From assembly GCA_027858735.1 (NCBI GenBank), contig JAQICC010000262.1:1879-65878 (forward strand): a stretch of 64,000 nt of DNA. The letters are read 5' to 3'. The notes under the pieces are model-generated. The model saw nothing but the letters and a program-made list of their open reading frames with translations, had not been told where the DNA came from and did no database searches. Positions 21,680-34,759 of this stretch are shown in pieces. The stretch comes from Salinivirgaceae bacterium (lineage in GTDB: Bacteria; Bacteroidota; Bacteroidia; Bacteroidales; SZUA-534). Within the stretch, counting starts at the first letter, position 1. Each line of letters begins with the position of its first letter. The translations under genes were made by a program, and so were the position numbers.

Positions 21680-22289
21680 CTATAATAAAAGGTCACAGTT
21701 TTGTTCAATTGTATTTATTTCGGCTCCCAAACTTTTGTAAAAACCAATTGCAGATGCATTCCAATTCGATACTTGCCAACGCATTTTTTTGCATTTTGAT
21801 TGTTTTGCTACTTCTATAACCGTATTACCTAAGTTGAGCGATTCGAACAAAGTGAAGAGGCGCTTTACTTAGGTATAACCCCGACCTAGGAATTGTTGGT
21901 TTTCGCATTTTGAGTGAAACGAAAAGTATGAAAACCTTACAAGACCTCAGTCGATTGAGCAGATTTGCGATAGCGAATCGCTCAATTTGGGTATTGATTA
22001 GCTTGGTACCCAACCCTTCTCCCCTATACTTTTCCTTTATATATAAATCCTCCATGTAAATGGATTTTCCACTCCATGTAAAATAAGTATAAAAGTATGT
22101 AGCATAACCTATAATGGTATTATTATTGGTTTTTACCACATACCAATTAAAGAATTCCTTTTCTTCTAACATTTGCTCAAGATTATTGGTCATTTGACTT
22201 TCAAGATTTTCAAATGCAGCAAATTCTCTAAATAGCTCTAATATTTGTGGATAATCGCTTTCAGTTGCTTTAAAAATGGAATAAATCAT
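21680..22289 (-). pseudogene. GNAT-family N-acetyltransferase interrupted by a 164-bp insertion
   Basis: The N-terminal part reads ...KYRGEGLGTKLINT and then runs into unrelated sequence and a stop at 21825. The C-terminal GNAT part (NTVIEVAKQSKCKKMRWQVSNWNASAIGFYKSLGAE...) is in another frame at 21680-21826. Removing 21827-21995 restores one 441-nt, 146-aa ORF. Confidence 0.88.
21827..21990. mobile_element. MITE-like non-autonomous insertion (164 bp) with terminal inverted repeats and a 5-bp target-site duplication
   Basis: The perfect 12-bp inverted-repeat core is TTGAGCGATTCG (21834-21845) / CGAATCGCTCAA (21974-21985), and imperfect pairing extends to the ends. GTATT is duplicated at 21822-21826 and 21991-21995. 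There is no ORF inside. Confidence 0.8.
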
Positions 22290-33063: not shown

Positions 33064-34529
33064 TGTTTTTGCTGCAAATATATGCAAAATGTCGAATTTA
33101 TTTCATTTGAATAAAGTATTAATATGAAGTTTTTATGTATTCATGTAATTCTAGGGCACTATATTCATTTCCGAAAGAATTTAATGATTGATTATCGCTA
33201 CGATTACATATGTAAACTGTAGATTGATATGATTTATTGTTAATGCAATGGGTAGTTGGTCTTCCCATAAAACGACCTAAGGCAATTAATTAAATGTTTA
33301 ACTTTAAGGAGATAAAAAACGATAATAACCACAGCATGCTTGCTTGCTTGCCTGGAATAAAAACCACAACCCATCCAGATTATTTAGTGATGGGTTTTAG
33401 ATGATTATTACTAGGCATATTAAACTCAGTCAAGTCATTAGTTTTTTTTTGTTCAAAAGCATAGCCTGAATAATTCATAAAATTTGACAAAAAGCACATA
33501 TCTTTTTCATTATCTACACCTTATAATTTTCAAGTGTTAAAAATAGTTTGTCAATTTTACTAAAGTGCATTTATTTCAGCACATCTACTTCCTTGCAATC
33601 CCTTTGAAGTCGGGAACTACATCGACAGGTATTGCAAGTTGTATCTGCACTAAACTAAACGCATGAATTAATCAGCATAGAGATAAAATATATTATCCGT
33701 TTTTTAAAACAACCCAATAGCAATCTTATAAATATGGGTTAACTCTTACTTAATTCAATTGATCGGAATCATTATTCTTGCCGCAGCATAAATCGGGTTT
33801 ATAAGCTAACAGGCTTTCCGTTTTATAACTTCACTATAAAACATTGAATAAAGACGAATAACCTCAGTGTGATATAAAATTAGGGCAACTTAAATCTGCC
33901 TCTAAACTGTTTTGAAAGGTGTATAAGACAAGAACGTACTTTCCGCCACAACTAGTAAAGCGTTCTTGAATTAGTATTGCATTTGTTTAAGATTTTTTCT
34001 TTAGGAAAGGCAAAATTTGCAAGCATAGCCGTAGTTACGGTTAATAATTTCAACGTAGCATAAATGAGTAATAAATGGTAAACTTTTCGATTAAATGTGG
34101 TAAGGTTGCTAATTAATATATACCGTTAATTTATGAGCGCTTTACTAGATTAAATATATAGCTAGAGCAGTTAATCATAATTCTACAAGTAGCTTAAAAC
34201 AGTCTATATAAGCTTTCATAGCTTATCTCCATGGGGCTGAGCATAAAAACACCAGTTTTTCCTGACCTAAAAGATGCAAACAATAGATTTTTAGTGATGC
34301 GTAATGAGCTAAAACGCTTGATACTGAAATTAAGTCAATAACAAACATTATTAAGCATTGTGTATCTCGCTATATATTAGCAGTGTGAAAATACAGCGAA
34401 CAAGTAATAAAAGTACAAGGCAAGTGTTAAAATATGCGATAATTATTAGTTCATTGGATAGTAACAAGCTTAATTCAGCCTAGCCTAATTGTTTATCCTA
34501 TAAAGTACGACTTCTACGTTATGTTCGTC

Positions 34530-34576
34530 AAAAAAACAATCACCCCGTTGTTTCAATCGGGATGATTGGTTTTTTT
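34530..34576. terminator. Bidirectional intrinsic terminator (A7-stem-loop-T7)
   Basis: Stem CAATCACCCCG (34537-34547) / CGGGATGATTG (34558-34568), 10 of 11 pairs, with a 10-nt loop. It is flanked by A7 (34530-34536) and T7 (34570-76). It lies ~185 nt downstream of the XRE gene stop on the minus strand and closes the ORF-free tract on the plus strand. Confidence 0.8.
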
Positions 34577-34759
34577 CTGACTTTCACAAGCACTACCAGA
34601 TTGATTTAGTCAGACTGGCCTGAATTCGAACTTCATATTCAAACACCTGATTTTATTGACGGTATCTAGTTAGAAAAAGAAGGGAATAAATAAATATTTA
34701 CAAATGTAAATTTATAAAAAAGGTATCCTAAGCTAGAAGACTCTAAAAATACCTTTGGC

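Follow-up and report, generated by a model that had tools for sequence, protein, structure and literature searches.

The window (the whole stretch of DNA analysed, 64,000 nucleotides) carries, between positions 21680 and 22289, a gene of the GNAT acetyltransferase family that is read on the reverse strand and is split by a short foreign sequence. This sequence is an element of 164 nt, bounded by terminal inverted repeats and flanked by a nearly perfect duplication of five bases; it lies antisense to the gene, the + label given to it being arbitrary. The features of the locus are the following:

21680..21827, reverse strand: end of the split GNAT gene (VIEVAKQSKCKKMRWQVSNWN...CDLLL and the stop codon), whose frame no longer matches that of the 5' part
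21823..21827, no strand: left copy of the target-site duplication, TATTA, whose inner ATT is exactly duplicated at the other side
21826..21875, forward strand: left-end hairpin, formed by the terminal repeat and an inverted copy of it inside the element, CGCTTTACTTAGGTA
21828..21845, forward strand: left terminal inverted repeat, CCTAAGTTGAGCGATTCG, from an inverted-repeat search; the terminus was found at 103 places in metagenomes
21828..21991, forward strand (arbitrary label): putative IS1380-family non-autonomous MITE, 164 nt, with CC...GG ends
21882..21953, forward strand: central long hairpin, from the predicted fold and a comparison of six subfamily members
21954..21985, forward strand: right-end hairpin, in which TTGAGCAGATTTGCGATAG pairs with CGAATCGCTCAA and which uses the right terminal repeat
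21974..21991, forward strand: right terminal inverted repeat, CGAATCGCTCAATTTGGG, whose reverse complement, CCCAAATTGAGCGATTCG, differs from the left repeat at two positions
21992..21996, no strand: right copy of the target-site duplication, TATTG, which differs from the left copy by a single base, in a synonymous position of an Ile codon
21992..22289, reverse strand: 5' part of the split GNAT gene (of the SSAT-like diamine/thialysine acetyltransferase type), up to about codon 100

Elsewhere in the window, the otherwise dense coding is broken at 33088-34759 by 1.67 kb without an ORF of at least 60 aa on either strand. No Rfam family was matched there at gathering score, the best weak match being a gltS RNA at 34346-34419 (28.7 bits against a cut-off of 47.5).

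The GNAT ORF starts at 22289 on the reverse strand, reads ...RGEGLGTKLINT and then runs into foreign sequence up to a TAA at 21825-21827, which gives a product of 154 aa, composed of 100 native and 54 foreign residues. The net insert of 169 nt is not divisible by three and therefore leads to a frameshift followed by this premature stop. Excision of the 169 nt joins ...GTKLINT to VIEVAKQ... (the uninterrupted junction being CTAATYAATACGG) and yields an ORF of 146 aa from 22289 to 21680, in agreement with the original prediction of a split gene that can be restored in frame. The restored protein aligns without gaps across the junction (LINxVIE) to about 14-15 intact orthologues, at 51-66% identity, and its PF00583 match spans residues 15-132 (76.6 bits), whereas that of the interrupted 154-aa product covers residues 15-113 only. 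None of these insertion-free orthologues carries the 164 nt as coding sequence. A restoration keeping three more bases was rejected, as it adds a residue that is absent from every orthologue. An empty site was also sought, and no such allele of the GNAT locus was found, the closest intact orthologue being only 66-68% identical; for P0001 and for the two genes next to the locus, look-ups of the exact protein matched no record.

Among solved structures, those nearest to the restored protein are diamine and thialysine acetyltransferases (e.g., 2bei, E = 4e-25), 2bei being colinear with it, and the acetyl-CoA motif of the family (R/Q-x-x-G-x-G/A) is present as RGEGLG. The insertion is located at about codon 100 of 146, directly after this acetyl-CoA-binding motif, so that the last 46 residues of the fold are missing, including a WQVSNWN...FYKSLGA block that is conserved in the orthologues. 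Judging from the loss of these 46 residues, the enzyme in its interrupted form is almost certainly dead.

Near its ends the element contains two perfect 12-nt cores, TTGAGCGATTCG at 21834-21845 and CGAATCGCTCAA at 21974-21985, as had been proposed. With at most one mismatch the 12-mer core is matched three times in the window, against 0.11 matches expected, and none of 100 shuffles reaches three. The inverted repeat extends to 20 nt with 90% complementarity (21826-21845 with 21974-21993). In order to place the element among its relatives, metagenome contigs were scanned with a degenerate 19-nt form of the terminus, ACCYAARTTGAGCGATTCG, which matched 103 stretches from very different environments and of very different base compositions. 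This terminus of 18-19 nt is nearly invariant across organisms of 34-66% G+C, and the sequences beyond the 19 nt diverge completely between lineages. In 44 of the 103 cases the contig ends less than 400 nt inside the element, which is the signature of a multicopy repeat.

The comparison with these relatives bears on where the element begins and ends. The bases ACC...GGT are constant among the copies and the relatives that have both flanks on one contig, and the three bases outside ACC...GGT are exactly duplicated in ten cases, the window (ATT) included. When the ends are drawn at CC...GG, perfect 5-bp duplications are found in eight relatives (L004, L014, L019, L053, L057, L067, L074 and L109), namely TAATA, TTAAA, TACCA, TAATA, TATTA, TGTGA, TGGTA and, in L109, ATGTA; in the same frame four of the five positions match in the window copy (TATTA/TATTG). 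The flanking duplications thus differ in sequence between copies. In L109 the base beside GG is A instead of T and matches the far flank, which favours a duplication of five over one of three bases. Ends at CC...GG with a 5-bp duplication constitute the best family-wide model, and they shift the element from 21827-21990, which the original prediction had regarded as fixed to the nucleotide by this copy, to 21828-21991. The duplicated GTATT of that prediction is present as described, at 21822-21826 and 21991-21995, and its frame has to be shifted by one base: the right-hand GTATT begins with the G that closes the conserved terminus TTTGGG and hence belongs to the element, and the L004 copy has no matching G on its left side. 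The shift is without consequence for the gene, as every boundary frame removes 169 nt and yields the identical GNAT protein.

On short metagenome contigs the duplications flanking full-length elements are mostly inconsistent, only L074 and L109 being informative, which is probably due to chimeric flanks. At 65 of 94 distinct element ends (flanks, L005-L116) the duplication begins with a T, and the flanks are AT-rich, which suggests a preference for palindromic T-NNN-A targets. This preference recalls the duplications TCATA/TATGA reported for ISEcp1 (PMC7864471, PMC2887853).

The original prediction of a mobile, MITE-like element had pointed to a search for further copies, and two of these were found at unrelated loci outside the window, in which neither blastn-short nor nhmmer detected a second copy. 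A scan of a genome collection holding one genome per species, queried with both 12-nt cores, gave L003 and the planctomycete loci L001 and L002 treated below, and it missed the window's own copy, which places the window outside that collection. A six-frame translation of the element used as protein query led through P0117 to the copy in L004, and it missed P0001, although P0001 contains the translation of the element. The first copy, in L003 (Salinivirgaceae MAG14), lies at 1039-1202, is intergenic, shows two mismatches in 166 nt and is located at the very end of its contig; it shares GTA beyond the right boundary that had been drawn at first. The second, at 2879-3064 of L004, shows one mismatch, and its central hairpin is longer by 22 nt exactly at the apex (2967-2988, AGCCTGCCCCGATTATTTCGGG), with a small CCCCG/CGGGG stem in the added stretch; insertions are evidently tolerated at this apex, or attracted to it.

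The copy in L004 splits a class I/II aminotransferase gene into ORFs of 181 and 242 aa, and its excision restores ...TRMIII|NSPHNPTG... in frame, which we take to be the usual motif of this family. The element is sense to the aminotransferase gene in L004 and antisense to the GNAT gene in the window, and these opposite orientations exclude an intron-like role and fit a DNA transposon. In each of the two split genes a start codon within the element shares the frame of the fragment that follows: a TTG for the GNAT fragment (window 21850-21680, reverse strand) and an ATG for the aminotransferase fragment (L004:3001-3729). These starts are probably coincidental. They lead gene callers to predict proteins with a chimeric N-terminus. 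An example is P0117, a 242-aa "aminotransferase" of a Salinivirgaceae assembly, in which the element codes for the N-terminus.

Three near-identical copies are thus known (window, L003 and L004), one to two mismatches apart, of which two are found inside coding genes. As the copies are about 99% identical (differing at 1-2 of 166 nt), the duplication is nearly intact and the halves of the GNAT gene show no other lesions, the insertion appears to be recent, as was originally proposed. Two G+C-rich planctomycete stretches (L001:5519-5657 and L002:2497-2658) also contain the two 12-nt cores as an inverted pair, separated by 115-138 nt. They were rejected as copies, as only the cores are common and the tip sequence differs; they look unrelated, being either distant relatives or chance matches.

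The window itself appears to be metagenome-assembled, and repeats of this family break assemblies, as seen in the 44 truncated contigs mentioned above. The split gene could in this respect be an artefact of assembly, or a minority allele of a metagenome-assembled genome. We consider this very unlikely: the element is short and has a proper duplication, the halves of the gene are contiguous and in the right order and orientation, and a second gene is split in the same way in a related assembly (L004).

The internal helices that had been described in the element were confirmed. A 174-nt stretch comprising it folds with -66.6 kcal/mol on the forward strand (z = -7.9) and -54 kcal/mol on the reverse strand (z = -6.7), and the predicted structure consists of three hairpins, with no single long stem. 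The plan of the window copy is shared by a subfamily that also comprises L014/L030, L045, L057 and L010, across which the left-end module of about 50 nt is the block that is best conserved in sequence. The central hairpin, on the other hand, differs in sequence between members and keeps its pairing: in six sequences from different metagenomes, 92% of the cells of its 22 consensus pairs are paired, compared to 35-48% when the partner is slid as a control, and ten pairs show compensatory changes. As almost all of these changes lead from one Watson-Crick pair to another, they fit an RNA and a DNA palindrome, and either strand, equally well. No relevant Rfam match was obtained for the region at E-values up to 10 or for the whole window at gathering scores, and no promoter or intrinsic terminator was found inside the element in a scan covering the sigma-70-type consensus rather than Bacteroidota promoters.

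These properties lend some colour to a reading in which the 164 nt represent a structured RNA gene, a small self-splicing element or a tolerated in-frame coding insert, instead of a transposon that kills a gene. The fold is very stable (z of about -7 to -8 for either strand), ten compensatory pairs show that the central hairpin is conserved, and one frame is open through the whole element. The last point also qualifies the original description of the element as ORF-less: it has no gene of its own, as described, and the open frame is read-through from the GNAT gene. We regard this reading as highly improbable. Rfam offered no match even at the most permissive E-value; the 169 nt added are not a multiple of three and the frame is closed by a TAA; the compensatory changes suit a DNA palindrome just as well; and no intron-like role can fit an element that lies antisense to the one host gene (GNAT) and sense to the other (the aminotransferase). 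A self-splicing intron or other sense-strand RNA element was rejected on the same grounds of orientation and missing Rfam match. A different question is whether the conserved hairpin and the end module of about 50 nt reflect a selected function of the transposon, be it a cruciform or RNA structure acting on transcription or on the fate of the mRNA, or a need of piggyBac-like seamless excision. Such a function seems unlikely to us; if excision were indeed seamless, insertions inside genes, such as the one in the GNAT gene, would be reversible gene switches.

The assignment of the element to a transposon family comes from its termini. The IS element with the same terminal repeats that the original prediction had envisaged was found in metagenomes, in the form of IS1380-family elements of 1.7-1.8 kb. 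In total, both termini were found on nine elements of 1.2-1.8 kb, each of which has one long ORF, and at 19 loci the terminus adjoins a homologue of one transposase. Two of the ORFs score above the 180-bit curated cut-off of NF033539 (NCBIfam, IS1380 family transposase), at 195 and 248 bits, and the same two transposases match PF13701 with 87 and 99 bits. The transposase clade comprises 2110 proteins at E <= 1e-20; among the matches listed most have 461 aa and come from contigs that are about 1.7-2 kb long, and one bears a Bacteroidales label. Compared with ISEcp1-type enzymes, the cognate clade shows about 23% identity (tblastn against plasmids). With an AT-rich cognate-type transposase as query, none of the best 120 of the 2110 homologues is labelled Salinivirgaceae. 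The window was likewise found to lack an IS1380-like transposase in a tblastn search with two cognate-type transposases, consistent with the earlier statement that it encodes no transposase. Only the termini are common to the MITE and the sampled full-length elements, and the termini also bound other short derivatives.

The smallest derivative found is an element of 75 nt, present in L056:412-486 and L095:283-357, that consists of two 19-nt IS1380-type termini and a 37-nt spacer. Two further loci with IS1380-type termini, L041 and L068, also have long ORFs, which by eye we take to resemble group II intron reverse transcriptases and transposases of another IS type; such loci would then be nests of mobile elements. 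A close homologue of the clade (57% identity) was found in a single plasmid record, plasmid pDCAR1 of Solidesulfovibrio carbinolicus (L108, 62385-63680), where it is unannotated. A terminus-like sequence, ACCTAACCTGAGCGATTCA, is located upstream of it and a second end was not found; this is probably a decayed copy.

The hairpin formed by each end of the element, together with the GTA that L003 shares past the right boundary and that at first hinted at the right GTATT being part of the element, might evoke the miniature of another type of transposon, either a palindrome-associated IS200/IS605 element, with a fixed pentanucleotide and no duplication, or an IS630 element with its TA target. This is extremely improbable, given the true terminal inverted repeats of 18-19 nt, the flanking duplications that vary from copy to copy and the fact that the termini adjoin genes for IS1380-family transposases, not for TnpA/TnpB or IS630-type enzymes. 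An IS200/IS605-type element, having no inverted repeats, no duplication and a fixed motif, was rejected in view of the repeats and variable duplications, the several copies and the link to IS1380 transposases; for the IS630 type, a 2-bp TA duplication would remove 167 nt, leaving the frame unrestored and adding a residue that the orthologues are without. Just as improbable to us is a one-off remnant, in which a full-length IS lost its interior in place and the 164 nt never moved as a short unit: IS-type termini and a target duplication are indeed also expected of an internally deleted IS, but a unit of 164-166 nt with the same interior lies at two unrelated loci, each with flanking duplications of its own, and diverged members of the same architecture exist in other metagenomes (L014, L045, L057 and L010).

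As its termini are common to IS1380 elements that encode a transposase and none is encoded in the window, the feature is very probably a non-autonomous IS1380-family MITE of 164 nt, without a transposase gene and bounded by the 18/19-nt termini CCYAARTTGAGCGATTCG. An IS1380-family DDE transposase, whose gene lies at another place in the genome or was once part of it, would bind these termini and move the element in trans. The element has inserted at an AT-rich T-NNN-A site, with duplication of five bases, and by landing at about codon 100 of the SSAT-like GNAT gene it has shifted the frame and ended the protein early. In the papers searched that name both IS1380 and MITEs, no IS1380-derived MITE is described in titles or abstracts, and the present subfamily may be undescribed so far. 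Miniature derivatives of IS1380 seem to be little described, and the event itself is ordinary in kind.

The element resembles the members of the IS1380 family (ISEcp1, IS1247, ISPme1) in its termini, which are those of elements of 1.7-1.8 kb with NF033539/PF13701 transposases. Its terminus begins with CCTA, as does the left terminal repeat (IRL) of ISEcp1, and its ends are of the CC...GG type. For ISEcp1 the IRL has been given as CCTAGATTCTACGT and the repeats of 5 bp as TCATA/TATGA (PMC7864471, PMC2887853), and repeats of 5 bp have also been reported for IS1247 (PMC3281130). The relatives of the element make duplications of 5 bp as do both of these, with a preference for AT-rich T...A targets. 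Unlike the members of the family, the element has only 164 nt and no transposase, and its conserved terminus is longer, at 18-19 nt, and nearly invariant; in comparison with the ISEcp1 type, moreover, the cognate transposases are remote, at about 23% identity.

Classical bacterial MITEs, such as Correia/NEMIS in Neisseria, RUP in Streptococcus, ERIC and Nezha in cyanobacteria, are short, non-coding, multicopy elements with inverted repeats, a target duplication and a strong fold, located in or near genes. The same features of comparison apply to the Tn3-derived TIMEs (PMC4133298). The present element resembles them in being short, non-coding and multicopy, with inverted repeats, a duplication and a strong predicted fold, and in being able to land inside or beside genes. 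It differs in its parent, which is IS1380 here as opposed to IS630, IS5, IS200/605 or Tn3, and in that two of its three known copies reside in coding genes rather than between them.

A more distant comparison can be drawn with piggyBac of eukaryotes, whose target is TTAA and whose hallmark is seamless excision. The ends are CC(C)...GG(G) in both, and in both the preferred targets are AT-rich and palindromic, T-NNN-A in the case of the element family, whereas the duplication of the element family has 5 bp, against 4 bp for piggyBac, and its target is not fixed. IS1380 transposases serve as the prokaryotic outgroup of the piggyBac transposases (PMC10813416).

For annotation, the 154-aa product, publicly annotated as a GNAT family acetyltransferase, is better treated as a pseudogene made by a mobile element, and the split aminotransferase of L004 represents the same case. 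Nothing in these results overturns current understanding. The 19-nt terminus can serve as a simple marker for elements of this kind and for explaining breaks in metagenome contigs. It ties a large and mostly unnamed environmental clade of IS1380-family transposases to short non-autonomous derivatives, of which at least one appears to have been recently active in Salinivirgaceae.
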